IMG/VR virus record: IMGVR_UViG_3300044988_000216
Coordinates: 1 to 32,469 of that record
Strand: one strand, 5' to 3'
DNA: 32,469 bases
Source: a virus
Lineage: Duplodnaviria > Caudoviricetes
Below the pieces are notes generated by a model, which saw nothing but the letters and a program-made list of their open reading frames with translations, was not told the origin of the DNA and made no database searches. The translations under genes and the position numbers were made by a program. Shown piece after piece: positions 1-32,469 of this stretch; positions within the stretch are counted from its first letter, which is position 1, and each line of letters opens with the position of its first letter.

Positions 1-127
1 GTGATTTCACTCACTTTGCCGGTTTTAACATTTTGAATTCGGATTTTTTCCATGATTCGTTTTTTTGTGTTATTTGTTTGGAATCCCAAAATTATGAATT
101 TTTTTGAATGGCCTCAATTTGTTGGGC
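1..127. repeat. Terminal direct repeat, left copy (circular assembly overlap)
   Basis: nt 1-127 are identical to 32343-32469; 127 nt is a common assembler k-mer; genes read through the junction. Confidence 0.95.
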
Positions 128-292
128 CGTTAACAATGAAATGAACCATTCATCACCCTCCGGGTTTGGTTCATCGGTTGTTAATGCATCATCCTCAATG
201 ATTTTTTTGATTTTGGTTAATGAATCAATATCATTTGATGATGCCGCCGTTTCGGTTAATTCGGCCAATTCTTGCAATTGTTCAATTGTCAT
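92..292 (-). CDS. Small acidic hypothetical protein (66 aa), possible partner or immunity protein of the MuF C-terminal domain
   Basis: ATGA overlap with the upstream MuF stop; acidic composition; function inferred from position only. Confidence 0.7.
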   Translation of the reverse strand: MTIEQLQELAELTETAASSNDIDSLTKIKKIIEDDALTTDEPNPEGDEWFISLLTAQQIEAIQKNS

Positions 293-2061
293 TCGGCAAT
301 TTTTATTGTTTTTTTATCCACTCCGATTTTTTCCAAATATTCCTCAACAAAATCAAATATTTTGGGATAATCTTTTTTCAATCCCGGATTATCAAAAACA
401 TAATATGTTAATGATTCGGCCCAAAATTCCGATAAATTAGTTTTGCCATATTCGGTTGGTGCATCATTCAAATCAAATTTTTTTCGGTTGAATAATAATT
501 TGAATTCCGTTTTGTTTGGATCCTTTGCGTTTTGAATTAAATGATTTGATTCGTGAACAATTGTTGGTGCAATGTTTTGGTTTTTGTTTAATGTGTTTGA
601 TGCCATTCGAACACTCCAAAATTTAAACCCGTTTCCATTTGGGTTTTCGTATGCAACAACCTCCAAATAACCCTTGCGTGATGATGGCCTTGCAATAACG
701 TTTCGACCGGATTCCGTTACCTTTTGTGTGTAACCATTTTTTAATAATGAATCAACATCAACATTCATTGGAACCTTTTTGAATTCAATGAAATCACCGG
801 GTTTTATTTTTACATTCAAATATGAATTATCCTTTGCACAATTCCCGTTTGCCGTTTCACTTATTGTTCCAAAGGATGCAAATGGTTGGTTAAATTTTCT
901 TCTTAATTGTTTTCCGCCATTTTCGGTTGATTCCGATGGATTTCTCAATAATGTATAAACACCTTTTTTGTTTATTATTTCAACCGAACCATCATTCCCG
1001 GATAAAACATTTGTCATTTCATCAACCATTTTTTGTGATTGACTTGTTACAAACAAACGTTTTTGAATTGTTGAATTTCCAATGTTTCGTTCAATAACAA
1101 TTTGATTTTTTAAAACATCCTTTTTAACCTCATTGATTTGTGTTTGGGTTTTTTTCGTTTCCTCGGTTGCCTCGGTTGTTTGTTCCTTTTGCAATCGTTC
1201 ACGTTGGGATTTTGTCAATTTGAACGGAATGGCCCGGTGCCGACAATTATATCCACCACGAAACACCAAAAAATTATCCGGGTTGGTTCCGGGAATCATT
1301 CCGGTTCCATTATTGTTTGCCCATGCAATTTCGGATTGCATTTCCGATTTTTCCAAAATTCGTTTCCCAACCCATCGAACACATTGTGCCCGGGAATCAT
1401 CGATGATTGATCCAACATAACGGAATGCATCCAATCCAAATTCATCGGCAATGATTGCATTAATTTGCCCATCAAATTGGCCCAATGCATCCCGGGAAAT
1501 TTGTTTCACATATCGTGAATATAAACCATTCAATTCCGGTGTTCCAACAACGTATGCCGTTAAAAAATTTTCCAAATCGGAACGGGTTGCACCACCAACG
1601 ATGTTTCGGTAAATTCCTTGTTTAACCGGTTCGATGAAATTGGCATCAACACCGGCACCGGTTAAACCATCCAATGTTTGTTGCACAACACCACGTTGGA
1701 TGGGATTAATTAAATCCTCCAATTCCTTTTTTGATAATCCATTCAATTTGGAATGAACATCAACATTGAATTCCTTTATGGTATCGAAATCACGCAAAAA
1801 TTCCCGGATGGTTGCCGGCATTTTTGATTTTTGGATTGCATCAACGATTGTTTGGTTTATGGTGTTCACCAATTCAATGTTTGAATCATTGAATTCAATT
1901 TTGCCGCCGGAAACGTTGAATTTGTCGATCAATTTTTTGATATCGGCAAAAATCAATTTTTCGGTTGGCCCTAATTGATCCAACAATTTGGATTCGGCCG
2001 TTGAAATTGTCGAATCCTTTTTTTCAATGATATCAATTATTTGTTCGGTGAATTCGGCCAT
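289..2061 (-). CDS. MuF/SPP1 gp7-like minor head protein with C-terminal HExxH metallopeptidase-like extension
   Basis: Directly after portal; 'YVGSIIDDSRAQC...GGYNCRH' MuF-type motif; C-terminal 'IVHESNH...YGKTNLSEFWAE'. Confidence 0.8.
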   Translation of the reverse strand: MAEFTEQIIDIIEKKDSTISTAESKLLDQLGPTEKLIFADIKKLIDKFNVSGGKIEFNDSNIELVNTINQTIVDAIQKSKMPATIREFLRDFDTIKEFNVDVHSKLNGLSKKELEDLINPIQRGVVQQTLDGLTGAGVDANFIEPVKQGIYRNIVGGATRSDLENFLTAYVVGTPELNGLYSRYVKQISRDALGQFDGQINAIIADEFGLDAFRYVGSIIDDSRAQCVRWVGKRILEKSEMQSEIAWANNNGTGMIPGTNPDNFLVFRGGYNCRHRAIPFKLTKSQRERLQKEQTTEATEETKKTQTQINEVKKDVLKNQIVIERNIGNSTIQKRLFVTSQSQKMVDEMTNVLSGNDGSVEIINKKGVYTLLRNPSESTENGGKQLRRKFNQPFASFGTISETANGNCAKDNSYLNVKIKPGDFIEFKKVPMNVDVDSLLKNGYTQKVTESGRNVIARPSSRKGYLEVVAYENPNGNGFKFWSVRMASNTLNKNQNIAPTIVHESNHLIQNAKDPNKTEFKLLFNRKKFDLNDAPTEYGKTNLSEFWAESLTYYVFDNPGLKKDYPKIFDFVEEYLEKIGVDKKTIKIAE

Positions 2062-2064
2062 TTA

Positions 2065-3978
2065 TCAAACGTTTGTTCCCGGTTCAATCGGTTTTGGTGT
2101 TCCCAAAATTTTCCGGGCCGTTTCCACATCAATCCCATAAATCACATTCAACAATTCAATTGCCGCCGCAAAATCGGTTATTCCATTGGCAACCGATTGT
2201 TGAATTTGCAAAATACCTTGCACACCACCAACCGATCCTTTCAAATTGGCTTGGGCCTCGGCTTGGGTACGTTGGAATTCGGGATCAACCGTTGGTGCAT
2301 CGATGTTGATGATGGTTTTGGGCACATATTTTTCAATGATCGGTGCCATTGCATCATCCAATGCCAAAAACAATTCCGGCAATGGTTTTTCCAAAAACTC
2401 CGTTCCGTTCAATGCCACCAAATTTGTTAATGTTCTGTATGCATACAATGAACGGATTAAATCGGCCTTTTGAATTGTTCCGGATGCCAACAACATTTGT
2501 TTATCGGTTGTTTTGATGTTGAACAATGGATCATAGGAAACCAATGTTTCAACCATTCGTGTAACCGATTTGTTGCCGGAAAAACGTTTCCGGGCCAAAT
2601 CCTTGGTTGATTCAACCAAAAATGCAACCGGTGCATTTTTATCACTCAACGTTGTGATTTCGGCAATCAAATCCGATTCCGTTTTCATCGAAAATGAAAT
2701 TGGTTTCACAATCACCGGTGCAACCGGTTCGATCACGTTTCGATATGCCTCAATGAACAACAATGATTTGTAGATTATTTCATCAAATATGTTGTTCGAA
2801 ATTTTGGTTAATTGGGAAAACGAATCCTCACGATCAATTTGTTTTGCAACCCCGGATTGTGATTCATCGATCACGTTTAAATGCAATGATTGTTCGGCCT
2901 TTTTTAATAATGTTTCCCATGCATTGCCCGAATATTCGATGATATCCACGGCCGGTGATATGAACCTCAACATTGGTTCGGATGAATTATCACCACCCAT
3001 TGCATTGTTTCCCTTTTCACGCATGAAAACACCGAATGGTGAACGTGAAATCACTTTGCCGGTGCCCTTGCAATTGCCACAACGTTCATGTTCATCGTTT
3101 TCCGAATTGTAAACAACACCATCCCGGCAACCCTTTGCCGAACATGTTTCGGCCATTTCCTCACGATATGGGAACGCCGATGTTGTCATTACCGCCGTCC
3201 AATCGGAATATTGCCGGATTGCCTCATTGGCAAATGGAATGAATGCCGAAAAATACGAATCGAAAAAATTTTCATCGGTGTAATCACCACCCAAAATCAC
3301 GGCCGGAACGGAACCAATGTTGTGTTCATAAATCAACACGGTTTCAAATTTCCGATCATGTTTTTGCCCGAATTGAATGTGTTTGTAATATCCGGAATCG
3401 GTTAATGTGTAATAAATTGAACCGGATTGATCCAATTTGCCATTCACCCGAACCATTGATTTTTCATCCTCCGATTCCCATGTTATGATGCCATGATCCA
3501 AAATTTTAATTTCATCACTCATAATCAACACCGGTTGCACATCAACTTTGATTGCCGGGTTGATTAAACCATCACCAACGGGAATCCAAACCAAATAACC
3601 GTTCGGATCTTCGATCATCCTCCGAACAACATATTTTTGGATGTATGAATAAAAATATTGCCCATCGAATTTTTGTTCACTCAAATATGTGTTCAATTCA
3701 TCCGAAACGGAAATTGAAAAATTGGCACCTTGGAAAATCCGGAACAATTTATCAATGGCACGATTCATCGAACCTTTTGTGATTGGTTCATAAATCGATA
3801 ATCGATATTTTTTCACATCCTCATCCTCATTTGGCCGCCGCCGGGTTAAAATTTCCCCGGGATTTTTTCCACGTGTATGGATGAACATGTTATCCCGAAC
3901 CCGGTTCCAATGCTCATAATTTTTGGGCCGATATTGTTCATTGGCCAACAATGATGGTATTTCCTCAATCGATATCAT
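2065..3978 (-). CDS. Portal protein with inserted four-Cys zinc-finger-like segment
   Basis: 637 aa, upstream of MuF, scaffold and capsid; 'QSGVAKQID' resembles the SPP1-type portal SGxA motif; 'CSAKGC...CGNCKGTG' insert. Confidence 0.75.
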   Translation of the reverse strand: MISIEEIPSLLANEQYRPKNYEHWNRVRDNMFIHTRGKNPGEILTRRRPNEDEDVKKYRLSIYEPITKGSMNRAIDKLFRIFQGANFSISVSDELNTYLSEQKFDGQYFYSYIQKYVVRRMIEDPNGYLVWIPVGDGLINPAIKVDVQPVLIMSDEIKILDHGIITWESEDEKSMVRVNGKLDQSGSIYYTLTDSGYYKHIQFGQKHDRKFETVLIYEHNIGSVPAVILGGDYTDENFFDSYFSAFIPFANEAIRQYSDWTAVMTTSAFPYREEMAETCSAKGCRDGVVYNSENDEHERCGNCKGTGKVISRSPFGVFMREKGNNAMGGDNSSEPMLRFISPAVDIIEYSGNAWETLLKKAEQSLHLNVIDESQSGVAKQIDREDSFSQLTKISNNIFDEIIYKSLLFIEAYRNVIEPVAPVIVKPISFSMKTESDLIAEITTLSDKNAPVAFLVESTKDLARKRFSGNKSVTRMVETLVSYDPLFNIKTTDKQMLLASGTIQKADLIRSLYAYRTLTNLVALNGTEFLEKPLPELFLALDDAMAPIIEKYVPKTIINIDAPTVDPEFQRTQAEAQANLKGSVGGVQGILQIQQSVANGITDFAAAIELLNVIYGIDVETARKILGTPKPIEPGTNV

Positions 3979-9680: not shown

Positions 9681-12600
9681 TTATGCCTTGTTTCGAATTC
9701 GTTGGTTTTTGTATTGAATCCGGGAAACGATCCCATTGATTCCACGTTCATCAATTGATAAACTCAATCCCTTTTGTTCACGAACGGCACGTTCAATCCC
9801 CTCCAATCGTTTTTCCATTGTTGATGTGTTGAATCGGTTTGATTCCGAAATTGAATTCACCAAAAATGGATTTCGGCCCATGTGGATTTGTTCCAACAAT
9901 GGCCGGAAACGTTTTGTTTTTTCTTTGGTGATAACGAATTCACCACGGTGAACAACACCGGCCGGTTCATATTTCCCACCATCACCCGTGTAACCACCGG
10001 ATGCAAATGAACCGGCCGCCGATTGGGCTTGGGCTTTGGCCGCAACCAAACCGGCCGCCAATGCAATCAATGTTGCCGCAATGGTGAATGGTGCCGCCGC
10101 CCCACCCTCGGCCGCCGCTTTGGATATTGCCACGGCCGAATTGGCAACCAATTCAATGGCCGCCAATGCTTGTTGGGCACGAACGAATTTTGCCCGTTTC
10201 TCATTCAATTTGGTTAAACGATCCTCCTCAATTTGTAACAATTCGGCATTCCCCTTTTCGGCAATCTTTGCGGCATCATTGATCCGTTTTTGTTGCCCGG
10301 TGATTTGGGCATCGGTTTGTGCAATTTGGGCATCGATCACGGCATTGGCCAATTGCAATGTTGCTTTGGCAACATCCTCAATTCCTTTGATGATTGCATC
10401 ACGCCGTTTTTTGGAATCCTCAATTGATGATTGGGTTAATTCATCATCCAATTGGGCCAATTGATCGTTGAAACCTTGTCGAATCTTTAAAATTTCCAAA
10501 TCGGTTTCCTTTTCAAGTAAAACACGGCCCTCCGATGTTAATTCACCGGTTGCCAATTCGGCATCACGCCGTGATTCAATTGCCGAAATTTCCAATGATT
10601 CACGTTCACCCAATGATGCCCGAACATCGGCCAAATTGGAATCCAATGCATCACGCAAATTTTGTTTTTCGGTTTGGTTTTTGGCATTTTCAAATTGTTC
10701 GAACAACAATGCACGTTGGTTCAATAATTCATTGGTGAATTGTGTTTCGTTTTCAATTTGGGTTTCGATATCGATTTGATCGATTTCGGCCAACAATTGT
10801 TGCCGTTTTTTTGCGGCATCGGTTTCGATGGTTGTGATTTCGTTGTTTGTATCATTGGCCAATTTGATTTTTTCCAATTTCCGGATTTGCTCAAATTGTT
10901 TTTCGATTTCGCCGGTTAATGTTCCGGCATCCCGGGCCTTTTGAATTCGATCGGTGATCGTGTTATCAATTGCCTCCGATTGTATTTTGGCCAATTCCAA
11001 AACACGTTTTTTTTCATCCTCCGTTGATTGTGGTTTTGATAACTCAATCGGTTGTTGCCTAACCTCCAACGACAAATCCCGGATTTCATTTTTCAAATCG
11101 ATCAACAAATCACGCCGTTGTTCGGCCAATTTTGCGGCCGCTTTGCCGGCCTTTTCATCCACATCCGATGTGATCCGGGTTGATTTTGCGGCATTGGATG
11201 CCAATTCATCGATTGCATTTTGTGTTTCAATGATGGATTGTTCGTTTTGGGCAATTTGTTCATCGATTTGATTTCGCCGGGCACGATTCCCGGATGCCAA
11301 TGCCGCCGTTTGTTCGATGAAATCCGATGATGATAATTGCCCGGCCTTACGTTGTTGCTCCAATCGTTGGGTTTCCCGGGCAACATTTGCATCACGTTGG
11401 TTTTGCAATGTTTTTTCGGCCGCCAATTGTTTTTGGGTTTGTTCCAATCCCAATTTTTGTTCACTTAATCGAACAATTGCATTCCGGGATGCCTCCGATT
11501 CGGCCGCCGATTTGATGGATGTTGCCAATTTGATATACTCGGCATCCAATGCCGCAATGAATTTGGTTTCATCCTTTATGTTTTTGATGGTTGTGCCATA
11601 TTTGGAATTCAATTCATCAACCAATTTTTTCCGTTCGGTTGATCCGGTGTTTGCCTTTTTAATTTCACCAACCAATTCATCCAATGCGGAAATTTCCTTT
11701 GCCGTTTCGGCATTGGTTATTTTTTGGGATTCGGCCAATGCCGATTGGGCATTCAACAATTGTTCGGTTGATTGTGCCGATTCATCAACGGCATCACCAA
11801 AATCGAGAAAAAATGCCGCCGCCGTTGCAACAACCGATAAAATCAAACCCAATGGGTTGGCACGAATCACGGCATTGAATGTTTTTTGTGCCGTGGTTGC
11901 AATCCCGGTTGCAACGGATTGTGCCCTCAATTGGCCCGTTAACAATCCCGTGGTGGTTGCTGCAATCCGGGTTGCACCGGTTGAAACACCCCGGGCAATT
12001 GCCAATGCACGTTCCCGGGCAACCGAAATCAATTTTTGGGCATTGGATATCAATTCAACTTGCAATGCCGTTTTTTGTTGCCCAACATAAAATGCAACGG
12101 CACCACCCAACAACAACAATGATGTTTTGTTTTCCTCAATGAATTCCGGGATTTGTCGAAATCCATCAATCAATTTGAACGCCGAATCCACGGCCGTTTC
12201 GAAAACGGGCAACAACCCGGTTCCAATATCACGTTTCAATTGTTCGAAATTTCCGGTTAATGTGGAAATCCGGCCGGCCGTTGAACCGGCCAATTTTTCG
12301 GTTAACCCAAAAAACCGGCCACCCTCCGATGTTAACGATTGGAATGCACGTTCCAAATTGGCAAATGTGATTTTTCCCTCCGATCCCAATTTTTTCACGG
12401 CCGATTCCGAAACCCCAAATTGTTTTGCAAATTCGGTGATCACGGGCACACCGGCCTCCGTTAATTGGTTGATATCCTCGGCAAACAATGTTCCTTGCAC
12501 CCGGGCTTTGCCATAAATAACGGCCAATTCATTGAAATCTTTGCCGGTTGCCGATGATACATCACCGATTCGTTGCAATGATGTTGTTAATTGATCCACC

Positions 12601-12995
12601 GGTTCACCGAATGCCAACAATGCTTTGCCGGCTTGGTTAACTTGTTCCGGTGTGAATGGTGTTTTGATCGAAAATTCCTCCAATTCGGCAAACACCTCCT
12701 TTGCCTTTTCGGCCGAACCCAAAAACGTTTCCAACGATATTTGCACCGATTCATAATCGGCAACCGCTTTGATTGCACCACGGCCAAAATCAATTGCCGA
12801 TGATGCAACCGATATTCCACCGAACGCCGCCGCCGCCCCGGTTAATGCCCGTTTCAAACCGCCCAATTGATTTTCGGCACCTTTTGTTACACCACCCAAA
12901 TCACGCAATTGTGATTTTACGGCATCCAATTCCCTTTTCAAACCGGTTGTATCGGCTTGTAAACGGAACAACACATTTTTCACACCATCGGCCAT
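9681..12995 (-). CDS. Tape measure protein (1104 aa)
   Basis: Ala-rich helical/coiled-coil sequence; N-terminal 'KTPF...' tape-measure region; C-terminal 'FASGGYTGDGGKYEPAGVVHRGEFV'; follows the frameshifted chaperone. Confidence 0.93.
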   Translation of the reverse strand: MADGVKNVLFRLQADTTGLKRELDAVKSQLRDLGGVTKGAENQLGGLKRALTGAAAAFGGISVASSAIDFGRGAIKAVADYESVQISLETFLGSAEKAKEVFAELEEFSIKTPFTPEQVNQAGKALLAFGEPVDQLTTSLQRIGDVSSATGKDFNELAVIYGKARVQGTLFAEDINQLTEAGVPVITEFAKQFGVSESAVKKLGSEGKITFANLERAFQSLTSEGGRFFGLTEKLAGSTAGRISTLTGNFEQLKRDIGTGLLPVFETAVDSAFKLIDGFRQIPEFIEENKTSLLLLGGAVAFYVGQQKTALQVELISNAQKLISVARERALAIARGVSTGATRIAATTTGLLTGQLRAQSVATGIATTAQKTFNAVIRANPLGLILSVVATAAAFFLDFGDAVDESAQSTEQLLNAQSALAESQKITNAETAKEISALDELVGEIKKANTGSTERKKLVDELNSKYGTTIKNIKDETKFIAALDAEYIKLATSIKSAAESEASRNAIVRLSEQKLGLEQTQKQLAAEKTLQNQRDANVARETQRLEQQRKAGQLSSSDFIEQTAALASGNRARRNQIDEQIAQNEQSIIETQNAIDELASNAAKSTRITSDVDEKAGKAAAKLAEQRRDLLIDLKNEIRDLSLEVRQQPIELSKPQSTEDEKKRVLELAKIQSEAIDNTITDRIQKARDAGTLTGEIEKQFEQIRKLEKIKLANDTNNEITTIETDAAKKRQQLLAEIDQIDIETQIENETQFTNELLNQRALLFEQFENAKNQTEKQNLRDALDSNLADVRASLGERESLEISAIESRRDAELATGELTSEGRVLLEKETDLEILKIRQGFNDQLAQLDDELTQSSIEDSKKRRDAIIKGIEDVAKATLQLANAVIDAQIAQTDAQITGQQKRINDAAKIAEKGNAELLQIEEDRLTKLNEKRAKFVRAQQALAAIELVANSAVAISKAAAEGGAAAPFTIAATLIALAAGLVAAKAQAQSAAGSFASGGYTGDGGKYEPAGVVHRGEFVITKEKTKRFRPLLEQIHMGRNPFLVNSISESNRFNTSTMEKRLEGIERAVREQKGLSLSIDERGINGIVSRIQYKNQRIRNKA

Positions 12996-13763: not shown

Positions 13764-15032
13764 TCATTTCAATCGAATGAAATCATTGTGAAACGTCCAA
13801 AGATAATAACGGAAACAATCCAACAAATGGGTTGATTTTGAATCACTTGTTTTATCAATATCACCGGATGATGTTGTTTCAACCGATTGCAAATCGTGAA
13901 TCAAAAATTGGCACGATGAATCAATTTTGCAATCCGGATGTTTTTGCAAAATCGAATTGAGCAAAACCCGGGAATTTTTGATTGATGGGTTAACCGATGG
14001 AACCCGGAACGCCGATTTTGGCAAATCCAATTCATCCCGGATGATCATGTAATAATTCAATGTGCCCTTTGTCATTGCCGAACGATTGGCACCGGATGCA
14101 TCACCCGTTACCAAATAAAACACATCCCCAAATTCGGCCCGGATGGTTTGGCACAATTGGTAAATGTCCGAATTCCTCAATCGGAATTCCCGGATGATTT
14201 GGATTGAATCACCGAACGATTGGCCGGCAATGCATGTGATTGGATCAACATTGAAATCGAATGATAAAATGATCGGTTCGTTTTTTTTGATTTCCAATCC
14301 CGGTTTCACGGTTTTGAACTTATTGAACCCGTATGCAAACGGCCGTTCCACATCCACAACATCCCAATCACCATTCACGAAAACGGCCCGTGTTACATCA
14401 TCCAAATTTTCCATTGCCGCCAAATATTCGGCCGGCAATGTTGGATTGTCGATCATCAATGCACGTTTGTAGAAATACGATGGGTTTAATTTCCCATCCA
14501 TTGCAGGTTCATGGAATTCCGTTTTGGGCCATTGTTGTGATGGGTTGCACGTTAACAAAATCAAACGTGGTGGTTGATTGGGGATGATATGCCGGCCAAC
14601 CCTCAATTTGCATTTTTCAAACGTTTTTTTTTGGATTTCTTGGCATTCCTCAATCAAAAAAAAATTGGTTTCCAATCCATCGAACCGGGTTAAATTTTTA
14701 TCCATGTTGAAATTTTCCGGGAAAAATTCCAATGTTGATCCATTGGTGAACGTAACAATGTGATCGGTTTGATGATATGATCGAATAAACGATTTCGGGC
14801 ACAACTTGAAAAACGTTGGAATGGTTGTTCGTTTCAACGATGGTAACGATTCACGAATCACGTGTGATTTTGAATTCGGAAATATTTTTGCCAATGATAT
14901 CAATGTTGCCAACGAAACGAATGTTTTGCCACCGCCGGCCGCCCCACCAAACATCAAACATTCGTGTTTGAATGAAAACACGGCATCCATGAATTCCAAT
15001 TGTTTTTGATGTGGTTGAAATGCAATTTTCAT
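13764..15032 (-). CDS. terL: Terminase large subunit
   Basis: 'PHQKQ' Q-motif, Walker A GGAAGGGKT, Walker B-like FLIEECQE, 'LTCNP' motif III, nuclease 'SFDFN' and 'HLLDCFRY'. Confidence 0.95.
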   Translation of the reverse strand: MKIAFQPHQKQLEFMDAVFSFKHECLMFGGAAGGGKTFVSLATLISLAKIFPNSKSHVIRESLPSLKRTTIPTFFKLCPKSFIRSYHQTDHIVTFTNGSTLEFFPENFNMDKNLTRFDGLETNFFLIEECQEIQKKTFEKCKLRVGRHIIPNQPPRLILLTCNPSQQWPKTEFHEPAMDGKLNPSYFYKRALMIDNPTLPAEYLAAMENLDDVTRAVFVNGDWDVVDVERPFAYGFNKFKTVKPGLEIKKNEPIILSFDFNVDPITCIAGQSFGDSIQIIREFRLRNSDIYQLCQTIRAEFGDVFYLVTGDASGANRSAMTKGTLNYYMIIRDELDLPKSAFRVPSVNPSIKNSRVLLNSILQKHPDCKIDSSCQFLIHDLQSVETTSSGDIDKTSDSKSTHLLDCFRYYLWTFHNDFIRLK

Positions 15033-15513: not shown

Positions 15514-15709
15514 ATTTAACCAAATGGTTCAAAATTGCATCCTCCGATTTGGTTTTTGGATTCGATTGGCCCAATTCAAAAACCCGGATGATCATATCAT
15601 GTTCAACCTCCAATAAATTTTCGATTTTGAAATAAAGTTGAACCGGGATGGTTCCATCATCAATCATGGAAATGTAATCCAACAATTGGTTCAATGGTGT
15701 TTTTGCCAT
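15488..15709 (-). CDS. Hypothetical protein (73 aa)
   Basis: TAATG overlap with the terS stop. Confidence 0.65.
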   Translation of the reverse strand: MAKTPLNQLLDYISMIDDGTIPVQLYFKIENLLEVEHDMIIRVFELGQSNPKTKSEDAILNHLVKFEKPKSND

Positions 15710-16200
15710 TAATTGAATTCGATGATTTGATCCCCAATTTTGAACACTTGTTTTTCGCCGGAAACATCAACATTGATTTGATCACCCCAATTTGCCGGAT
15801 CGGTGTTTTTCAATGCAAAAATCACGGCCGTTGGATTCGGCCCAACATAACGCCGTTTTTTCATCACACGTTTCCCATTCAATTGGCCGGTTTTGCCATA
15901 AATTTCCATCGTTTCGGTTTCATCAACCCAATATCCGGTGATCAACCGGGTTAAACCATCAATTGATTTTTCCCGGATTGATTCTTTGCCAATTTTGTTG
16001 TGTTGTTCCTTTGCCTTTTTATAACGTTCGGAAATTTCGGAATGCAAACCACACCATTGTGTGAACGTTCGAACGGAAATCCCATATTCACCACAACATG
16101 ATTCAATCGTTACATTGCCGTTTTCGTATGCCTCACAAATCAATTTCGTTTTTGATAAACGATATTTCAATGATGTGCCCGGCTTTGCCTTTTTTTTCAT
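15709..16200 (-). CDS. terS: Terminase small subunit
   Basis: N-terminal HTH-like 'TIESCCGEYGISVRTFTQW'; 'PNPTAVIFALKN...W' typical of TerS; upstream of terL. Confidence 0.8.
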   Translation of the reverse strand: MKKKAKPGTSLKYRLSKTKLICEAYENGNVTIESCCGEYGISVRTFTQWCGLHSEISERYKKAKEQHNKIGKESIREKSIDGLTRLITGYWVDETETMEIYGKTGQLNGKRVMKKRRYVGPNPTAVIFALKNTDPANWGDQINVDVSGEKQVFKIGDQIIEFN

Positions 16201-17084: not shown

Positions 17085-17308
17085 GATTGTGATTGTTTAA
17101 CATCATCGTGTTTCAATTCCCTCCATGTGTAATCAATCAAATATAACCTCAACCGGGCAAATAAAAATGCCAATGCATCGGCCGTTCCGGATTTAACAAA
17201 AACAACTTTGCAAACGTAAACGATGGATGTTTTAATTGCAATTGATGCAATAATGATCATGAAAATTGGGAATGCCCAAATCATTGCAATTTTTGAAATT
17301 ATGTTCAT
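17081..17308 (-). CDS. Small membrane protein (75 aa)
   Basis: Hydrophobic N-terminal half; ATGA overlaps. Confidence 0.6.
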   Translation of the reverse strand: MNIISKIAMIWAFPIFMIIIASIAIKTSIVYVCKVVFVKSGTADALAFLFARLRLYLIDYTWRELKHDDVKQSQS

Positions 17309-17634
17309 TGGTTTTGGTTTTTCGGTGTTAACATGATGAAATTTTCGGCAATGATATTTGTTGCACGTTGTTTTGATCCATCATTTGCAATATATTCCCG
17401 GATTTCAATTTCACCCTCAATGTGAACTTTGTGCCCTTTTTTGATGTACTTATTGGCCAATTCGGCCAATTTGCCAAATGTTGCAATCCGGAACCATGTT
17501 GTTTGTTCAACCGGTTCATCATTTTTTTTGATTCGTTTTGTAACGGCAATGTTGAAATTGCACACGGTTGTTGTGTTGATTTGTTTGAATTCAACATCGG
17601 AACCAACGTTCCCAATTAAAAATACTTTGTTCAT
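17305..17634 (-). CDS. ssb: Single-stranded DNA-binding protein
   Basis: 'MNKVFLIGNVG', 'TTWFRI', 'KKGHKVHIEGEI' OB-fold motifs; start moved to the ATG overlapping the upstream stop. Confidence 0.93.
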   Translation of the reverse strand: MNKVFLIGNVGSDVEFKQINTTTVCNFNIAVTKRIKKNDEPVEQTTWFRIATFGKLAELANKYIKKGHKVHIEGEIEIREYIANDGSKQRATNIIAENFIMLTPKNQNQ

Positions 17635-17876
17635 TTTACGATTTTGATTGGTGATTGAATGATTGGGGATTTTTCGATTATGATTTTGTGATGTTTCATC
17701 CACATTTCAAAATTAAAATTCATCGGATGGATTGCACGATCGATTGGGTTTCCGTTTTCATCGGTTTTTGGGTTTCCGTTTTCATCCATTGCCGGTTCAA
17801 TTTTGCATTCCCGGATGAACTCACGTTGCAACATCATGATGATTGCATTGCCGAAATTGATTTGTTCGTTTTTCAT
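17631..17876 (-). CDS. Hypothetical protein (81 aa) with DENGNP x2 repeat
   Basis: Overlapping start and stop with neighbours. Confidence 0.65.
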   Translation of the reverse strand: MKNEQINFGNAIIMMLQREFIRECKIEPAMDENGNPKTDENGNPIDRAIHPMNFNFEMWMKHHKIIIEKSPIIQSPIKIVK

Positions 17877-18754
17877 TTATATTGAATTGTGGGTTTAATT
17901 GCGGCAACCATTTCACGCAAACATCCATTTGAATCTTTAATCTTATTGAAAAACTCACGAATGGCAATTTCACGTGATTTGTTCACAACCATATCATGGT
18001 GCCCAATGTGATGTTGCCCGGATTCAATTGCCGATTTCATGGAATTGAAAACCCGTAATTTTTCCAATGTATCACATTGAGGATTTTCGATTTGAACATT
18101 GATCACCTTTTGTGCATGTTCGAAAATTTCACGTTTTTTTTCGGCCGTTAAAACCAAAATGCACAATTGGTTTTCCAAAACATCGAACATTTGCCGGATC
18201 GAATAATGTTTGAAATTGATTTTTCCGGTAACGGCATAATAATCCCAAACATCGAACAAACATTTTTCGATGTATTCCCAAAACATTCGTTGTTTATCAT
18301 CCACGGTTAATTCATCCGATTGGTTCATTTCGTTCAATTTGATTAATTGTTGGTTGTATTCATTCAATGCCGATTGTTGGGCCTTTTTAAATGCATGCAT
18401 CACATCGGCCAAATAAACGGCCGAAAAATTTTGGTAATGGGTAATATCAACATCGATTTTTTTGGTTGCGGCCAATCGAAATGATAATGCCAATTCCTCC
18501 GATGAAAAATTTTTCAATTCGGTTTTGATGAAATCGATTAAAACGATTTTTTGGATTTCGGATGGGAAATGTTCGGGTTTCAAACCAATCAATGTGAAAA
18601 TATATCGTAAAGATTGCCGGATCGGTTCATCATCGGTTAAATCCCGGATCGGTTTTGAATTCAATTTTGTTTCAACGATTTCACGGCCGTTAAAAGTTAC
18701 GAACCGCATCATCGAAATTTGGTTTTGATTTTGGGTTGTTAATGTTGTTTCCAT
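17873..18754 (-). CDS. Hypothetical replication-associated protein (possible helicase loader)
   Basis: 293-aa ORF directly after the initiator, the lambda P position; function from context only. Confidence 0.5.
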   Translation of the reverse strand: METTLTTQNQNQISMMRFVTFNGREIVETKLNSKPIRDLTDDEPIRQSLRYIFTLIGLKPEHFPSEIQKIVLIDFIKTELKNFSSEELALSFRLAATKKIDVDITHYQNFSAVYLADVMHAFKKAQQSALNEYNQQLIKLNEMNQSDELTVDDKQRMFWEYIEKCLFDVWDYYAVTGKINFKHYSIRQMFDVLENQLCILVLTAEKKREIFEHAQKVINVQIENPQCDTLEKLRVFNSMKSAIESGQHHIGHHDMVVNKSREIAIREFFNKIKDSNGCLREMVAAIKPTIQYK

Positions 18755-19484
18755 TTGGTTTTGCGTTTTTGTTTGATAACCATTTTTTGCACGTTAAAAA
18801 TACGGATGAATATTTTGAAATCAATGGTTTGTAATTTTCCATCGAATCCAATGTTTCAATCACGTTTTTGAACCCGAATGTTTCATCCAATTTTTCGGCA
18901 TCGGAAATTTTCAATTGGGTTTTCAATTTTTTGATGTTTGGGCAATTTTTGGTGATGTGATCAATGATTGGATGAAAAACATTTTCATCAACAATAATAT
19001 CATTATTGTTATTTAATGAAGATGAAAATGAAAATGAAGATGAAAGGGTTGGTTTTTGGTTGGAATTTTGGTTAACCAAATGTTCAACCTTTTTTGAACC
19101 TTTTTTCACCAATTTTGGGTTTCCTCCCAATTTGCCGGATTCCCTCCGAACCTTACGCAACCGTTCATCCCCAACCATTCGTTTTGAATAAAATTGCCCG
19201 GATTCGTTTTCCTTTATGATTCCAAAATGTTTCAATTCATGGAACACCTTTTGGAATTTTTTTGGATTCAAATTGGATAACTTTTGGATTCCTTTTGCAT
19301 CCAAAAACACATCCGAAACCATCAAAAAACCACGTTCATTTGCCATGTGCATGTGGCACAATAAATCAATCCAAACACCACGGGTTTCCGGTGAACACAT
19401 CCGCAATGATGTATCGGTTAACCAATCACCGGGATAAAATTGAAACGATGGTAAACGTTCCGATGAATTTTTTGGTGTTTTCAT
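18690..19484 (-). CDS. Phage replication initiator-like protein (DUF1376/YdaU-like N-terminus)
   Basis: 'PSFQFYPGDWL...RGVWIDLLCHM', 'SKRM...GKLGGNP', Ser-rich linker 'LSSSFSFSSS'. Confidence 0.75.
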   Translation of the reverse strand: MKTPKNSSERLPSFQFYPGDWLTDTSLRMCSPETRGVWIDLLCHMHMANERGFLMVSDVFLDAKGIQKLSNLNPKKFQKVFHELKHFGIIKENESGQFYSKRMVGDERLRKVRRESGKLGGNPKLVKKGSKKVEHLVNQNSNQKPTLSSSFSFSSSLNNNNDIIVDENVFHPIIDHITKNCPNIKKLKTQLKISDAEKLDETFGFKNVIETLDSMENYKPLISKYSSVFLTCKKWLSNKNAKPNGNNINNPKSKPNFDDAVRNF

Positions 19485-19954
19485 TTCACAACATCGTTGA
19501 ACAATTTGATGAAACGGGCATCGGCCAATTTGCGTTTTCCGGAAATCACATTGTGAACAAATGGATATGTGTGATGTGGGTTTTGCTCAACAAATGATTT
19601 GATGTTCCGGAATTTTGTGGCAATGCCAATCCGGATTGATTCACGTTCAAAATATGTGATGCAATTGGAACATTCCATTTTGAATTCGGTTTCCAAAATG
19701 TTGGCAATGCATCGAAAAACATCATTGGTTGATTCCGGTGATAACCTTAAATTCAAACCATTGGTGATGGTGTAATAATTCAATTGGTTAACCCGGCAAA
19801 AATGCCGGGTTGAACCATATTGTTTTTTCAATTCACGTTGAACGTTTGATGCAAATTTTGCAAACGTTAAATTTTTGGATTGGGGAAATTTTTTGGATTG
19901 GATCAAACCAAATTTTTCGGCCTCAATTTGGATATCTTTAAACGTTTTCATCAA
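19481..19954 (-). CDS. Putative DNA-binding protein with two HTH-like halves (157 aa)
   Basis: 'STRHFCRVNQLNYYTITNGLN' and 'NIKSFVEQNPHHTYPFVHNVISGKR' resemble Cro/Ner-type HTHs. Confidence 0.5.
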   Translation of the reverse strand: MMKTFKDIQIEAEKFGLIQSKKFPQSKNLTFAKFASNVQRELKKQYGSTRHFCRVNQLNYYTITNGLNLRLSPESTNDVFRCIANILETEFKMECSNCITYFERESIRIGIATKFRNIKSFVEQNPHHTYPFVHNVISGKRKLADARFIKLFNDVVK

Positions 19955-20996
19955 ACAATGTTGTTTGGGTTAATGAATTGATTTTGTTTTGGGCAACCTC
20001 CAAAATTTCCGGCCGGGTTTCCTCCATTGTTAAATCCATGATTTGTTCAACGGATTCGGATTGTTCGATTTTAGACAATGCAACAATATCAACCCGTGAT
20101 CCAATCATCATTTCAATTTGGCCCTTTAAATCATCGTTGTTTGAATATATTTTCATCAATTCGGAAACATCATCGGTTTTATCGATTTGCGTTTTAATAT
20201 CCTCAATCCTTTGTTTGTGTTTACGTTCGGCATCCAATTTTGCCAATTCCGTTTTCCGGGTTGTTAAACCATTTTTGAACATTGGCAAATTGTGCAAATC
20301 CGGGTTTGCATTCCAAACGGCAACCAATTCATCCAAATCACTTATTTCCCGGATGCCGTCCAACAATGTTCGAATCCGGATCGTATCATCCACATTTGGT
20401 TGTTGATTCACCGATTTTGGTTTTCGAACTTTTGTTTCAACAACAACGGCATCAACATCCATTGCCGCCAATTCCTCCGATGTGTATGGCATGCCTCCCA
20501 ATTCATCCGAAAAACATAATCGGAACCCTTGGGCCATTGCAACCTTTTTAATCATCGTGATGGGCTTGTTTCGCCAAAATTCGGTGATTGATCCATCACG
20601 TTTCCGGCCAACATATTCAATGTAATATACATCATGAACAAATGGATGTTCAAAATCACGCCGGTGGATGATAATTTCGGCCCTCAAATCCGAATGCATC
20701 ACGTTTTGTTGATTGATCGATCCATGAATTCGAACATGCCAACCGTTTAACAAACCGGAACGTTCGGCCCGTTTGATGTACGTTTCAAATCCAACGATAA
20801 CCGAAAATTTATCACCGTATTTATTGGCATAAATTTCACGTTTGAATGGATTTAATTGAAACCCTTGGGCAATTTCAATGAATTGTTCAACCTCCGATTT
20901 GGTTAGATTGTTGGCCAACCCCATCGTTTCCAAATATTTTGTGATTTTTTCCACATCGGCACCATAATCCGGTGCCGTTTTCTCAATGTTTTTCAT
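19938..20996 (-). CDS. bet: Bet/RecT-family single-strand annealing recombinase
   Basis: 'LNPFKREIY' and 'WRNKPITMIKKVAMAQGFRLCF...GMPYTSEEL'; start placed at MKNIEK after the promoter and A-rich leader. Confidence 0.85.
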   Translation of the reverse strand: MKNIEKTAPDYGADVEKITKYLETMGLANNLTKSEVEQFIEIAQGFQLNPFKREIYANKYGDKFSVIVGFETYIKRAERSGLLNGWHVRIHGSINQQNVMHSDLRAEIIIHRRDFEHPFVHDVYYIEYVGRKRDGSITEFWRNKPITMIKKVAMAQGFRLCFSDELGGMPYTSEELAAMDVDAVVVETKVRKPKSVNQQPNVDDTIRIRTLLDGIREISDLDELVAVWNANPDLHNLPMFKNGLTTRKTELAKLDAERKHKQRIEDIKTQIDKTDDVSELMKIYSNNDDLKGQIEMMIGSRVDIVALSKIEQSESVEQIMDLTMEETRPEILEVAQNKINSLTQTTLFDENV

Positions 20997-21018
20997 GGTT
21001 TTGTTTTTTGCGTTTTTG

Positions 21019-21026
21019 CAAATATA
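21019..21026 (-). promoter_or_regulatory. Bacteroidota -7 promoter element TATATTTG upstream of bet
   Basis: Matches TAnnTTTG; no TTG at 19-nt spacing. Confidence 0.55.
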
Positions 21027-21043
21027 CAACAAATGTTGTTTGA

Positions 21044-27231: not shown

Positions 27232-28176
27232 TTATGGCAATCCTTGAATGTAACGTGATTGATTGCACGTGATACAAATATCATCCATCCGGGCAAATAA
27301 TCCCGGCAATTGTTGCACGGCCGTTTCGAAATGTGAATTGTATTGTTTTTCAAATTCACCCAACATGAATTCACATTTTTCACCATCCAACAACGTAACC
27401 GAATTCAAACGATCGGTTGTTTTTGCCTCCTTTACAATTTCAATTCCGGCCCGGTACAAAATCGGAAATCGAATTTTTTGGGCCAAAACACATGCAATTT
27501 CATCCAATGAACATTCGGCCGCCACGTTAACCGATAAACCAAATGATGATGATGATGTGCCCAATCCATTCCATCCGTTTCCGGTTAAAAAACGGGATTT
27601 GGCCGTTGTGCAATTGCATGATGATTTCACCTTTGTGTTATTCACGTTGATTGCCGAATTATCCGTTGTGATGTATATTTCGGCACCATCGGATAAGTAA
27701 TCCGGGAATATTTCGGCAAATCCACTCAAATCCGTTGTGAATGGATATTGGGTTGTGAAAATTCCATCGGTGATGGTTATGTTTCCCGAATAAACGGCCT
27801 CAACGATTCGAATTTGAACCGATTGAACACGAATCCGAACCATCCGGGATTCCCGGGTTGTGATTCGAAAACCACGTTCATTGGGATTGGGGATCAAAAA
27901 TGTTGGTTGCCAATCACCGGTTTTCAATTCATCAATCAACGAATTCATCCGGAAATAAGGCATTGCAAATTTTGCAATTTCATCCAAAACCAATTGGGTT
28001 GCAAAATTTATTTTGGATTCAATCAATGAAATCCCGGATTGGTAACCGGAATCGGCAACATCGGCCGCAAATCGTAAATTGATCCCCTCCAAATCATCAA
28101 TCCACAAACCGGATTTCGGTTGTGTTTGTGAAACACATTTGATTCCAATAAAATTATCAAAACAATTTGTTGCCAT
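27232..28176 (-). CDS. Putative head-tail adaptor/structural protein (314 aa)
   Basis: Helical N and C termini with beta-rich centre; 9 Cys; late-operon position. Confidence 0.5.
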   Translation of the reverse strand: MATNCFDNFIGIKCVSQTQPKSGLWIDDLEGINLRFAADVADSGYQSGISLIESKINFATQLVLDEIAKFAMPYFRMNSLIDELKTGDWQPTFLIPNPNERGFRITTRESRMVRIRVQSVQIRIVEAVYSGNITITDGIFTTQYPFTTDLSGFAEIFPDYLSDGAEIYITTDNSAINVNNTKVKSSCNCTTAKSRFLTGNGWNGLGTSSSSFGLSVNVAAECSLDEIACVLAQKIRFPILYRAGIEIVKEAKTTDRLNSVTLLDGEKCEFMLGEFEKQYNSHFETAVQQLPGLFARMDDICITCNQSRYIQGLP

Positions 28177-28669
28177 AACCGAATGGATCGTTTTTGTAAA
28201 TGTTACGTTCCGGAACGCCGATTGATTTTAGGAAATCCGGAACCCAAAATGATGGGCATGCCTTGTTATCAAATTGATTGTGCCCACCAATCAAAACATT
28301 TGGTGCATAATCCAAAACCATTTTGATGATTTCGGTTAACGTTTTGGTTTGGGAAACGTTCAATGTGTTTTTGGGTTTGTTTTGGGCATCCAATCCACCA
28401 ACATAAACAACATGTCGGGAAACCGAATTGATGCCCTTTACACCGTTGGTGATTTCGGAATTTTGAATCCACAAATCACCATTGTGTTCCACGAATCGGT
28501 GCCGTGAACCATTTATCAAAATCATATCGGAATAACCAACCTTATTCCAACCCCTCCCATGTGGTGCCGGTGATGTATGCCAACGGATTATTTGTTCCGG
28601 TGATACATGTACATCCTCACGGGTTGCGGTGCAATGAATAACAAAATATTTAAACGGTTTGATTTGCAT
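28157..28669 (-). CDS. Endolysin, N-acetylmuramoyl-L-alanine amidase (T7 lysozyme-like)
   Basis: 'VIHCTAT', 'RGWNKVGY', 'YVGG', 'GHNQFDNKACPSF' with His/His/Cys zinc ligands; exact start uncertain. Confidence 0.92.
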   Translation of the reverse strand: MQIKPFKYFVIHCTATREDVHVSPEQIIRWHTSPAPHGRGWNKVGYSDMILINGSRHRFVEHNGDLWIQNSEITNGVKGINSVSRHVVYVGGLDAQNKPKNTLNVSQTKTLTEIIKMVLDYAPNVLIGGHNQFDNKACPSFWVPDFLKSIGVPERNIYKNDPFGYGNKLF

Positions 28670-29063
28670 TTTCGTTTTCGGATTTGTTTTCAATTGGTTT
28701 TTTTAAGCCAATGAAAAATACATCAAATTTTTCGTACTTATCAAAACGATCAATTGCCAATGTTGATTCATATTTCAATTTCAATTCATCAATGGCCCAT
28801 TCAACATTCCTCATTGTTTTGAAACGTTTTGATCCATGTTGAATGAAAAAAACAACACCGGATTTTGTTTTCAAATCACGAATCCAATTTGGTTTGGTTA
28901 ATTTGTGATTGATCCGGGTTTCGAATTTTTTGATTTCATCCAATTGTGATTCGGATGTTGCAAAAACAAATGAATCGTAAATGAACAATCGGTTGTTCAA
29001 ATAACGGAATGCCGATTGCACATCCTTTGGTGCATCGTTCAATAATTTTTCACGATAAATCAT
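28650..29063 (-). CDS. Hypothetical protein (137 aa)
   Basis: ATGA overlap with the upstream gene. Confidence 0.65.
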   Translation of the reverse strand: MIYREKLLNDAPKDVQSAFRYLNNRLFIYDSFVFATSESQLDEIKKFETRINHKLTKPNWIRDLKTKSGVVFFIQHGSKRFKTMRNVEWAIDELKLKYESTLAIDRFDKYEKFDVFFIGLKKPIENKSENENANQTV

Positions 29064-30102: not shown

Positions 30103-31128
30103 TTAATCACAACCAACGATTGTTGAACAATCTTCGAAATCGAATGTGTAATTAACGCCAACGTTATCATCACCGGCACCGAACGCATTGGCCGGAATGA
30201 AAAACAATCCCCAATTCAAAAACATTTTGATGCTCCATTCATCGGCACAATCATCATAATGAACTTTCAAATCGTATGTTAACCCGGTGAATGGATCGGT
30301 GATTGTTCCATGTTCAAACACATCATTGCGTTTTGCATAATCACCAACATATTTGTTCCATGTTACCAATTGAACGGCACCCGGTGCCAACACGATGAAA
30401 TGGTTTGCACCAATTTCCGATTCAACAAAACGATCATTGAAATACATGTAATCCGTCCAACGGGCCATATCGGTGCCGGTTGTTGAATTGCAACATGCAA
30501 TTTGTTGTGTTTTTGCATACAAATCGAAATTGCCCGAACCAATGATCATTGGTGCCCCGGAACCACCAACCAAATCATATTCGTGGCGAATTTGTGCCGC
30601 CGCAATTGAACGTGGTGAATTGGTTGTTGCTTCAAACAATTTCACTTGTTTCAATTGTGTTCCATCGGAAAAATTCCCAAAATTGGTTGATTGTAATGCC
30701 AACAATTGTTTGTTCAAACCAACATTCAATGCATTCATTTGTGCCATGATCACATTTGAAACATAAACCGAATCGGCCTCACACAATTTTCGCATTTCAT
30801 CCTCAACAAATTTCATTCCCTTGGTTTCCAAACAGTTTTCAACCTCGAAAATGGTTTGTTTTGGTGCCGGTTCACGGGTTGTATCACACGAATTGGTGCA
30901 TGTGAAATTCACATCGGCCACCGTTCCACGTTGGATGTAATCGATTTGCACGGCACGATATTTCCCGTTTGATGGAACCGGGATTGCCTCAAATCCGGCA
31001 CGATTTTCCTCACTCATTAATGCATCAACGTAACCAACACGATCACGTTTTAATGCCGGTGCATTCGAACCGGCAACCGCATTCAAACTTGTTTGCAATT
31101 TTTGGCATAAGCCCTCTGTAAACGCCAT
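30103..31128 (-). CDS. Major capsid protein (341 aa)
   Basis: Follows the scaffold; size typical of HK97-fold capsids; strong A-rich leader before MAFTEG. Confidence 0.75.
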   Translation of the reverse strand: MAFTEGLCQKLQTSLNAVAGSNAPALKRDRVGYVDALMSEENRAGFEAIPVPSNGKYRAVQIDYIQRGTVADVNFTCTNSCDTTREPAPKQTIFEVENCLETKGMKFVEDEMRKLCEADSVYVSNVIMAQMNALNVGLNKQLLALQSTNFGNFSDGTQLKQVKLFEATTNSPRSIAAAQIRHEYDLVGGSGAPMIIGSGNFDLYAKTQQIACCNSTTGTDMARWTDYMYFNDRFVESEIGANHFIVLAPGAVQLVTWNKYVGDYAKRNDVFEHGTITDPFTGLTYDLKVHYDDCADEWSIKMFLNWGLFFIPANAFGAGDDNVGVNYTFDFEDCSTIVGCD

Positions 31129-31304
31129 TTTTTTTTGTTTTTGATTGTTAAAAAATTGATTGATTGATTGGGGATTAAACACAAAATCCCATCACAAACC
31201 GATTCAATAAATGAATCAATCCGAAATGGGATCGGTTCCCCGTTTGATGCCTTATTGGTTAGGCAAACCCGGAAAAATGCATTTAGGGTTGCCACCCCGT
31301 TTTT

Positions 31305-32126
31305 TTATTCCTTTCCAAACACTTTCATCGATTTCAATGATTCGGCATTTTGTTCGGCACGTTTTAAGCCAACCAAATTGAATTTTGAATTCGGTTCCGG
31401 TGTTGGATTCGGATTTGGTTTTGGATTTGCACCCGGTGTTGGATTTGGTGATCCGTTTGATTGTTTCACCACTCCCAATGTTGCCAAATGTGAATCCAAA
31501 ATTTCATCAAATGTAACAATTTTCGTTCCATCGGAATTCAATGGATTCAAATTGTTTTTTGTTTTCACCACCAATTGCCCGGCATCATCAACATCCAAAT
31601 TGTAATTTGTATTTAAAAAATTGTTCACGGCCGGTAAAACAACATCCGGTGAAACAATCAATGATTTTTTGGCAATGATGCCATTGATGATTGATTCACG
31701 TTTGAATGATTTGATTGCATTTTTTGCCTCCGATTCCTTTGCCGGGATGATTTCATCAACCAATCGTTTGTTTTCATTGGTTAAATCAATCAACTTTTTT
31801 TGCATTTCATCGGCACCATCAACGGATGATTTTGTTGCCTTATCATGGGCAATGGAAATGATTTCATCGAACTTTTTATCACGAACATCCTCAACGGATA
31901 ATCCGAAAACTTTTTTCATTTTGTGTTCGATTTTCGATAATTCCGAACCACGTATTTCATCCTTTATTGGTTGGATGAATTCCGGATCGTTTTTCAAAAC
32001 ATCACGTTGGGTTGATTTAAAACCGGAAACGATTTCATCAATTGATGTTGTTTCATCCGATGTTAATTTGGAAATTGAATCGGCCGGAACACCGATTTGT
32101 TTTAAAAATGATTCAACGTTTTTCAT
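31305..32126 (-). CDS. Capsid scaffolding protein (273 aa)
   Basis: Charged helical protein with Pro/Asn/Gly-rich C-terminal linker, directly upstream of the capsid gene. Confidence 0.7.
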   Translation of the reverse strand: MKNVESFLKQIGVPADSISKLTSDETTSIDEIVSGFKSTQRDVLKNDPEFIQPIKDEIRGSELSKIEHKMKKVFGLSVEDVRDKKFDEIISIAHDKATKSSVDGADEMQKKLIDLTNENKRLVDEIIPAKESEAKNAIKSFKRESIINGIIAKKSLIVSPDVVLPAVNNFLNTNYNLDVDDAGQLVVKTKNNLNPLNSDGTKIVTFDEILDSHLATLGVVKQSNGSPNPTPGANPKPNPNPTPEPNSKFNLVGLKRAEQNAESLKSMKVFGKE

Positions 32127-32395
32127 TGTTCGTTTGATTTTGTCGATTTGCGTTTTGGTTTTTCAATTTCCGTTTGTTCCGTTGATTCCTTTGATTCGGT
32201 TGTTTCGGTTTGTTCCTTGGATTCCTTTGGTTCCTTTGGTTCCTTGGATTCAACATTGAATGAAACAACCTTTTTTTCCGTTGGTATCACATCAAAATTT
32301 TTTGAATGCCCACCACGTTTCAATTGATCCCATGCCGATTTTGTGATTTCACTCACTTTGCCGGTTTTAACATTTTGAATTCGGATTTTTTCCAT
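32123..32395 (-). CDS. Hypothetical protein with Glu/Lys/Thr low-complexity tail (90 aa)
   Basis: Start MEKIRIQ; ATGA overlap with the scaffold start; SKE/PKE repeats. Confidence 0.65.
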   Translation of the reverse strand: MEKIRIQNVKTGKVSEITKSAWDQLKRGGHSKNFDVIPTEKKVVSFNVESKEPKEPKESKEQTETTESKESTEQTEIEKPKRKSTKSNEQ

Positions 32396-32469
32396 GATTC
32401 GTTTTTTTGTGTTATTTGTTTGGAATCCCAAAATTATGAATTTTTTTGAATGGCCTCAATTTGTTGGGC
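32343..32469. repeat. Terminal direct repeat, right copy
   Basis: Identical to nt 1-127. Confidence 0.95.

Follow-up and report, generated by a model that had tools for sequence, protein, structure and literature searches.

Genome of the phage and loss of AG and CT

The window analysed here, the whole 32,469-nt stretch of IMG/VR record IMGVR_UViG_3300044988_000216, is the complete circular genome of a tailed phage (32,342 bp, 39% GC, no tRNA genes) followed by a 127-nt terminal repeat, likely the assembly overlap of a circular contig. Avoidable AG and CT have been almost completely removed from both strands of this genome. The phage occurs in freshwater and lake metagenomes, and long stretches of it are matched at 97–100% identity by contigs from other lake runs, so its composition is not an assembly artefact. 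The recognisable genes are listed in Table 1. About half of the open reading frames (ORFs) belong to no family, and no methylase, nuclease or anti-restriction gene was matched among 48 ORFs in PHROGs and Pfam or among 24 in NCBIfam, in agreement with an earlier note on this DNA, made from the letters alone, which had recognised no methylase or anti-restriction gene. PF01555 was present in 2 of 25 relatives, and ArdA in 0 of 16.

On the plus strand, AG occurs 56 times against 1662 expected (observed/expected ratio, O/E, 0.034) and CT 371 times against 2215 (O/E 0.168). The loss is uniform along the genome, with 0–4 AG in each 1-kb bin, and extends to the 1304 nt of non-coding DNA (AG 7 vs. 72 expected, CT 6 vs. 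74), as the earlier note had described. Its counts by eye also held. Nucleotides 1–480 contain one AG (at 439) and nine CT, and the roughly ten CAG/CTG sites that it had noticed are exactly ten (749 expected), within 1 nt of the positions it gave: CTG at 2435, 4989, 5174, 6264, 11960, 29764 and 31116, and CAG at 14504, 24338 and 30833. Surviving sites are mostly CCT/AGG (258 of 427). The codon usage that it reported was found in 47 ORFs, with TTG or TTA for 774 of 791 Leu, CGN for 408 of 441 Arg and CAA for all 469 Gln, and stop codons TAA (25), TGA (22) and TAG (0). What it had missed was the accompanying loss of GAC/GTC (29 vs. 749), GCG/CGC (O/E 0.30) and TA (O/E 0.30). TT and AA are enriched. 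The depletion is graded by context (O/E 0.013 for CAG, 0.021 for TAG, 0.34 for AGG), and the strongest purge is that of GAC and CAG.

Table 1. Features of the window and the basis of their assignment
Feature	Position	Strand	Basis or remark
Whole phage genome	1..32342		AG/CT purged on both strands end to end; GAC/GTC, GCG/CGC and TA low; A...T words at 7–10 nt depleted
Direct terminal repeat of nt 1–127 (127 nt)	32343..32469		Repeat comparison
Every recognisable gene (one-directional layout)	92..32431	-	Gene calls
Minor head (MuF-like) protein with C-terminal HExxH zinc-peptidase domain	289..2061	-	PF06152, E 8e-6, below cut-off; HESNH motif; alignment with relatives
Portal protein	2065..3978	-	phrog_7376, E 4e-10
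Tape measure protein	9681..12995	-	PF20155, phrog_9959
Terminase large subunit (TerL; basis of family tree)	13764..15032	-	phrog_979, PF04466
Two residual sites, TAG 14470 and CAG 14504	14470..14506	+	Gone in strain variant of two other lake runs
Terminase small subunit	15709..16200	-	phrog_309
Replication/recombination module: SSB, replisome organiser, RecT/Bet	17305..21032	-	PHROGs/Pfam; inverted relative to structural genes in unpurged two-armed relatives
Amidase endolysin	28157..28693	-	phrog_822
Putative major capsid protein; marker for gathering relatives	30103..31128	-	Size, position and conservation; no family match

Selection at the DNA and protein level

The loss of AG/CT is the result of selection, not of mutation. 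Which base was changed varies by codon and is decided by the silent route (CTR to TTR, NCT to NCC or NCA, CAG to CAA, AGR to CGN); that either base of AG/CT is altered, whichever is silent, indicates selection. Codon junctions, compared with a shuffle that preserves codon usage, contain 94 AG against 734 and 22 CT against 442, and the purge remains after codon and amino-acid correction, with AG/CT ratios not near 1.

In the coding strand, AG is forced where Lys, Glu or Gln precedes a codon starting with G, and CT is never forced; AG exceeds CT on that strand mostly because the genetic code forces it. Of the 306 AGs on the coding strand of 26 core gene clusters, 215 are forced; the free sites number 91 AG and 44 CT, compared with 979–1294 and 1112–1463 in six unpurged relatives with two-armed genomes. 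The forcing dipeptides [KEQ][ADEGV] are themselves depleted in the window (215 vs. 451 expected, 0.48), for example Gln-Glu (2 vs. 23) and Gln-Asp (2 vs. 22), compared with ratios of 0.92–0.98 in the six two-armed relatives. Before a G-starting codon, GAG was picked over GAA in 85 of 90 cases.

Relative to control use in matched contexts, optional AG was retained at 45 of 1008 coding and 18 of 953 template sites (63 of 1961 in total), so that about 97% of avoidable AG/CT has been removed, from both strands (95–98%). The near-complete loss of avoidable sites from both strands, together with the halving of the forcing dipeptides, argues for selection. Optional CTs are short-lived: the window and its sister genome have 4 of 25 in common, compared with ~55–75% for other dinucleotides at those positions. 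The strain variant of Table 1, found in runs X11 and X12, carries 14472 G>A and 14505 A>C. The same bias was not present in 80 Bacteroidota chromosome loci (AG O/E 0.71–1.13; none of them the known host), and host mimicry is therefore an unlikely cause of the purge.

A two-part signature around AG

The survival of AG depends on a base further downstream. Counted from the A, the O/E of AG...T is 0.79, 0.64, 0.52 and 0.75 at +7, +8, +9 and +10, and about 1 at other offsets and in the unpurged control G002; T is the sole base of the four that is depleted at these positions. Among surviving AGs, 205 of 383 have no T at +7 to +10 (121 expected), compared with 121 of 383 at the control positions +12 to +15 (118 expected) and 134 of 383 upstream (121 expected). 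The signal was observed on each strand (33 of 56 vs. 14 expected; 195 of 367 vs. 117), and was flat upstream and in unpurged relatives. Optional AG use decreases from 3.0% to 1.5%, 0.1% and 0% with zero, one, two and three or more Ts, and is flat at 46–50% in two controls. The stratified odds for AG survival with a downstream T were 0.20 at +8 and 0.23 at +9, and independent action of several spacings was found in all 8 AG-poor genomes and in neither of the 2 controls.

TA gave the same T signal at +8 and +9 (0.67, 0.69), as did GAC (37 of 67 vs. 21). Specific two-part words are missing in both orientations and at four spacings: GA-N6-TCC (2 vs. 51.6 expected), GAT-N4-ATC (0 vs. 21), GAA-N4-TTC (0 vs. 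17.8), AC-N5-TGCC (0 vs. 16), CGA-N7-TGA (0 vs. 15.7), CCA-N7-TTA (0 vs. 13) and GA-N9-TCCA (2 vs. 21). No word was kept in the same scan of G002. A depletion of A...T at offset 4–5 was set aside, as it was seen in controls as well. GA...TC is depleted at gaps of 3, 6 and 9 nt (49, 22 and 43 vs. ~86), of which gap 3 lies outside the Type I/IIB spacing.

Purged words and genome layout among relatives

Relatives were gathered by capsid and terminase scans (62 capsid loci, several hundred terminase matches), and the layouts of the window and 32 further records of full or nearly full length were compared. AG/CT was below 0.3 in 34 of 63 capsid loci, many of them redundant. The words purged differ by lineage, and include AG/CT, GAG/CTC, AGA with GAC and ATC, CG (0.03–0.07) and CA/TG (0.17).

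The layout is one-directional in 22 genomes, the window among them, and each of these has a purge together with depleted A...T half-site pairs at offsets 7–11 (6–78 pairs per genome at p<1e-4, symmetric pairs counted twice, with few or none at offsets of 12 or more). Eight records from two-armed clades (both arms seen in 7), as well as 2 sister fragments, give 0–1 pairs and have normal AG. The replication module is inverted relative to the structural genes in G002/G015/G019/G021/G001/G442 and, independently, in G432, and both lineages are unpurged. In the TerL tree, two-armed genomes appear on two separate occasions within one-directional lineages, a single origin being rejected by the approximately unbiased (AU) test (p 6e-5). 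The link between layout and purge is based on two inversion events only, and a distant relative, L403, looks one-directional over 19 kb yet is unpurged. Fragment L052 (0 pairs in 10.6 kb, 4 pairs in 17 kb) was kept out of the layout count.

The two-armed relatives avoid classical palindromes. Among them GATC, CTAG, CCGG, GGACC and several 6-bp palindromes are at 0; in the six that were checked, CTAG is at 0 in six, and GATC and CCGG in four. In the core genes of G002, G015, G019 and G021, Gly-Pro occurs once against 65 expected, likely reflecting GGNCC avoidance at the protein level.

Separate observations concern individual lineages. CG is cut to 0.03–0.07 in every context in G024 (L078, L079), G434 (L441, L442), L165, L417 and L358. 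In G433 (CA/TG 0.17, 51% GC), a TET-associated glycosyltransferase gene adjoins a methyltransferase-like gene (L439:405-2616), and G004 also encodes a TET-associated glycosyltransferase (L075:420-1499).

The family has a MuF-like minor head protein with a swappable C-terminal effector (for example window 289–2061, minus strand; L073:7102-8784; L453:2831-5593). The effector was found in 22 of 22 purged records examined, as an HExxH peptidase (three subtypes) in 21, and is an Alt-like ADP-ribosyltransferase in L052/G443; in unpurged two-armed genomes the protein is bare or absent. The effector was considered as a self-toxin and rejected, since peptidase subtypes do not follow the purged words, and the window and its sister G003 have different subtypes although the same words are purged in both. 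A DNA-mimic role was likewise rejected for cluster 36, an acidic protein of the two-armed clade: it had no Atlas match, is present in the purged G018 and was not seen in the unpurged G432.

Comparison with known restriction systems

The loss works like restriction-site avoidance, but not in its classical palindromic form. AG, CAG and GAC are non-palindromic 2–3-mers, and classical Type IIP avoidance is absent from the window and occurs only in the two-armed relatives. The avoidance surveyed by Rusinov et al. (2018, PMC6286503) shares with the window the deletion of target words on both strands, and the two-armed relatives show its textbook form; there, the known cases are orthodox Type II sites, whereas the window has lost 2–3-nt and two-part words and has altered its proteins.

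What Type I and IIB sites would lead one to expect, a dependence on T at 7–10 nt downstream and the absence of specific two-part words, was observed. In Staphylococcus aureus Type I sites (Sau1), 7–9 bp lie between the methylated adenines (PMC5399793), which corresponds to offsets 8–10 in the window. Bacteroides fragilis NCTC 9343 has an invertible hsdS shufflon in which a fixed GAC is paired with CTG, TCC, TGC or GRTY, and putative shuffled Type I loci were reported in 686 of 3528 Bacteroidetes genomes (PMC7641763). The window resembles such systems (PMC7641763, PMC5399793) in having A on one strand and T 8–10 nt downstream, and in a fixed GAC with changing partners, the systems being common in Bacteroidetes. 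It differs in that its enzymes are inferred from the phage only, and in that several missing words specify 4–5 bases instead of 6–8. The Type IIB enzyme BcgI recognizes CGA-N6-TGC, with a 6-bp gap and an A-to-T offset of 7 (PMC3874165, PMC4027205). The offset is that of GA-N6-TCC, and the half-sites are similarly of 2–4 bp; the relative G018 lacks CGA-N6-TGC altogether (0 vs. 14.8). Unlike BcgI sites, the window is also depleted at offsets 9–10, in the Type I range, and no enzyme gene was seen. In one study, Type I pressure was seen only on an early-injected region (PMC12455610), whereas the purge in the window is genome-wide.

AG as the probable shared core of many host sites

We consider it likely that AG was removed because many host restriction sites share it as a core adjoining the methylated adenine, part of these sites being likely two-part sites of the Type I/IIB kind. 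The host is probably a member of the Bacteroidota, as suggested by the amidase, whose 80 best chromosomal relatives are nearly all Bacteroidota and which is the only host evidence. Host populations would have numerous systems that methylate adenine and whose target-recognition domains are shuffled. Type I/IIB systems with a partner T 7–10 bases downstream would produce the two-part signal, and contiguous AG sites of systems like Type IIG, Type III and BREX (bacteriophage exclusion) would produce the T-independent part. With a partner half-site that keeps changing, deleting the shared half-site may be the only stable, pre-emptive escape, and a phage lacking a recognisable methylase or anti-restriction gene would have no other means. 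Forced AGs would then be retained in the least-hit context, RAGG with no downstream T. Many specificities are favoured over a single two-part target.

Two-part sites account for the gradient, and not for most of the loss. With no T at +7 to +10, optional AG use is still 3.0% compared with 47%, and an additional cause is therefore needed. A partner G, as in Type I systems methylating adenine and cytosine (m6A/m4C), had no significant effect in the subset with no T. An upstream G at -5 to -3 reduces AG survival (0.75, 0.59 and 0.71 in seven pooled AG-poor genomes), as would be expected from contiguous 5–7 bp sites ending in AG; a short-target defence is the alternative for this T-independent share, which is the larger one. 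Contiguous sites ending in AG belong to the motif families of Type IIG, Type III and BREX systems. Of the cause proposed in the earlier note, selection against a DNA-targeting host defence is supported, and its option of many AG-containing motifs fits the T-independent purge; a pure 2–3-nt target does not predict that AG survival depends on T 7–10 nt away. The two-part A...T signature and the mostly forced nature of the coding-strand AGs had escaped it, and two-part Type I/IIB sites were not among its candidates.

Several results weigh against the reading of AG as a shared core. A half-site with no partner T is not neutral, as AG is still reduced by 94% there, and optional AG use is still as low as 4.1% with T absent from +6 to +12. 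Depletion was seen in each of the 15 NAGN contexts that could be evaluated, and was strong in 14, so the 5–7 bp sites would have to be very diverse. Around CG, the lineages purged of CG gave no partner-base signal, and in the lineage purged of CA the signal was small (x1.12 vs. x1.09), and the dinucleotide purges of the family thus do not all share the two-part route. A survey of ~4000 viruses reported that neither Type I nor IIG sites were avoided (PMC6286503). No host enzyme or methylome was seen, the enzymes being deduced from phage DNA. A prophage search with capsid patterns in GTDB gave 48 candidates, none confirmed; window DNA gave no spacer-like match in four samples of 401, partly overlapping, Bacteroidota genomes, the matches being at chance level or to amidase/SSB genes; and the 6 best that were checked had no repeat array.

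TerL was found in none of five amidase-bearing metagenome-assembled genomes (MAGs), and the RecT search returned no host names. Among 50,697 phage records, the capsid protein led to no cultured relative, and by TerL the identity was <30% among the matches listed. HsdS is present in 31 of 45 genomes of the family of one MAG, which is uninformative on the real host of the phage.

Alternative explanations

A single host defence with a true 2–3-nt target, such as an AG/CAG nickase, a phosphorothioate-linked nuclease or a base-modifying toxin, might do the bulk of the purging, with Type I/IIB systems adding the T gradient. Very short targets exist, among them those of the RAG nickase of chloroviruses and the 3-nt phosphorothioate motifs of Ssp systems. 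The loss in all contexts and on both strands, its persistence at 94% with no partner T, and the purging of other dinucleotides to 0.03–0.17 in sister lineages (CG in G024, G434, L165 and L417, with no partner signal; CA in G433) would all fit. Such a target is hard to reconcile with the strong context grading, including the preference for GAG before G, and with the T dependence. A dinucleotide cutter would moreover destroy the at least 215 forced AGs that persist, and GAC, TA and GA-N6-TC are purged though they contain no AG. We regard this explanation as unlikely.

A more speculative proposal, which we also hold to be unlikely, is an undescribed, switchable defence of freshwater Bacteroidota whose effective target is close to a dinucleotide (AG; CG, CA or GAG for sister phages). 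The phage family would survive by recoding its genome and part of its proteome, with genes kept on one strand so that unavoidable sites face the same way, and the replication arm could be inverted only after leaving such hosts.

It is doubtful that orientation-dependent enzymes (Type III, Type ISP or MANTIS-like) are the main driver, with forced AGs tolerated since all point one way. Type III polarity was favoured first, from 59 GGAG against 0 CTCC, and was weakened by the forced AGs and by chance-level reciprocal polarity. Signal and purge do coincide with a one-directional layout, being present in 22 of 22 such genomes and in none of the 8 records of the two-armed clades. The context-matched ratio of coding to template AG retention is 2.1 in the window, 8.4 in G013 and 0.98 in a control, and most lineages have more polarised 5-mers than a codon shuffle gives. 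The EcoP15I sites of T7 and the MANTIS strand bias (bioRxiv 10.64898/2026.09.23.753747) provide a precedent, and the window resembles these cases in its one-directional genome with residual sites mostly on one strand. The window differs, however, in being purged on both strands, from which more than 95% of optional AG has been lost; its asymmetry is mostly forced by the genetic code, and the residual polarity is about twofold. Polarised 5-mers in the window number 18 against 12.6 in the shuffle, and retention ratios are 1.15–1.3 or 0.77 in four other genomes (0.77–8.4 across 8). Opposite polarities between lineages, 12 among 163 words, equal the uniform expectation, with 10–21 against 11–27 at three other thresholds. 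The layout argument has the limits given above, two independent inversions and the unpurged L403.

It is very improbable that the phage attacks host DNA with a frequent cutter or a DNA-modifying toxin of its own and is spared because its genome lacks the target. The many ORFs that belong to no family would leave room for one, and the variable effector of the virion protein is found in 22 of 22 purged and 0 unpurged records. No nuclease, deaminase or methyltransferase was matched, however, 21 of the 22 effectors are HExxH peptidases, with subtypes differing between the window and G003, and many different two-part words are missing at several spacings.

Mutation bias, host mimicry, tRNA supply or an mRNA-cleaving toxin, to which the enrichment of TT and AA and the greater scarcity of CT than AG on the coding strand might point, are largely refuted and scarcely credible, since the changed base varies by codon, the purge takes in junctions, non-coding DNA and the template strand, T 7–10 nt away matters on either strand, proteins are altered, AG O/E is at least 0.71 in 80 of 80 Bacteroidota loci, and the phage has no tRNAs.

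Implications

In the window, site avoidance reaches down to single dinucleotides and has changed proteins as well. Two-part sites of the Type I/IIB kind are clearly avoided, whereas the ~4000-virus survey reported no such avoidance. A literature search found no paper on a dinucleotide-level purge in phages; subscription papers were mostly outside its range, and the supplements of PMC6286503 and bioRxiv 10.64898/2026.09.23.753747, which may contain motifs, were not covered. The missing words would form a readable record of host restriction specificities, by which hosts could be selected from lake methylomes through a motif match, for example to GGA-N6-TC. The family supplies natural controls, with purgers of AG, GAG, CG and CA and two unpurged rearranged lineages, through which a connection of defence load with word purging and gene orientation can be tested.

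Other observations

Window ORF 23371–24147 had no Atlas match; among the genomes compared, a homologue is present in the sister genome only. In G435 the tail block (tape measure and neighbours) is duplicated in the record (L443:4801-17312), possibly as an assembly artefact. The early region of the window, 22484–24025, is variable, and the strain in run X11 has 22484–22775 replaced and 22803–24025 missing.

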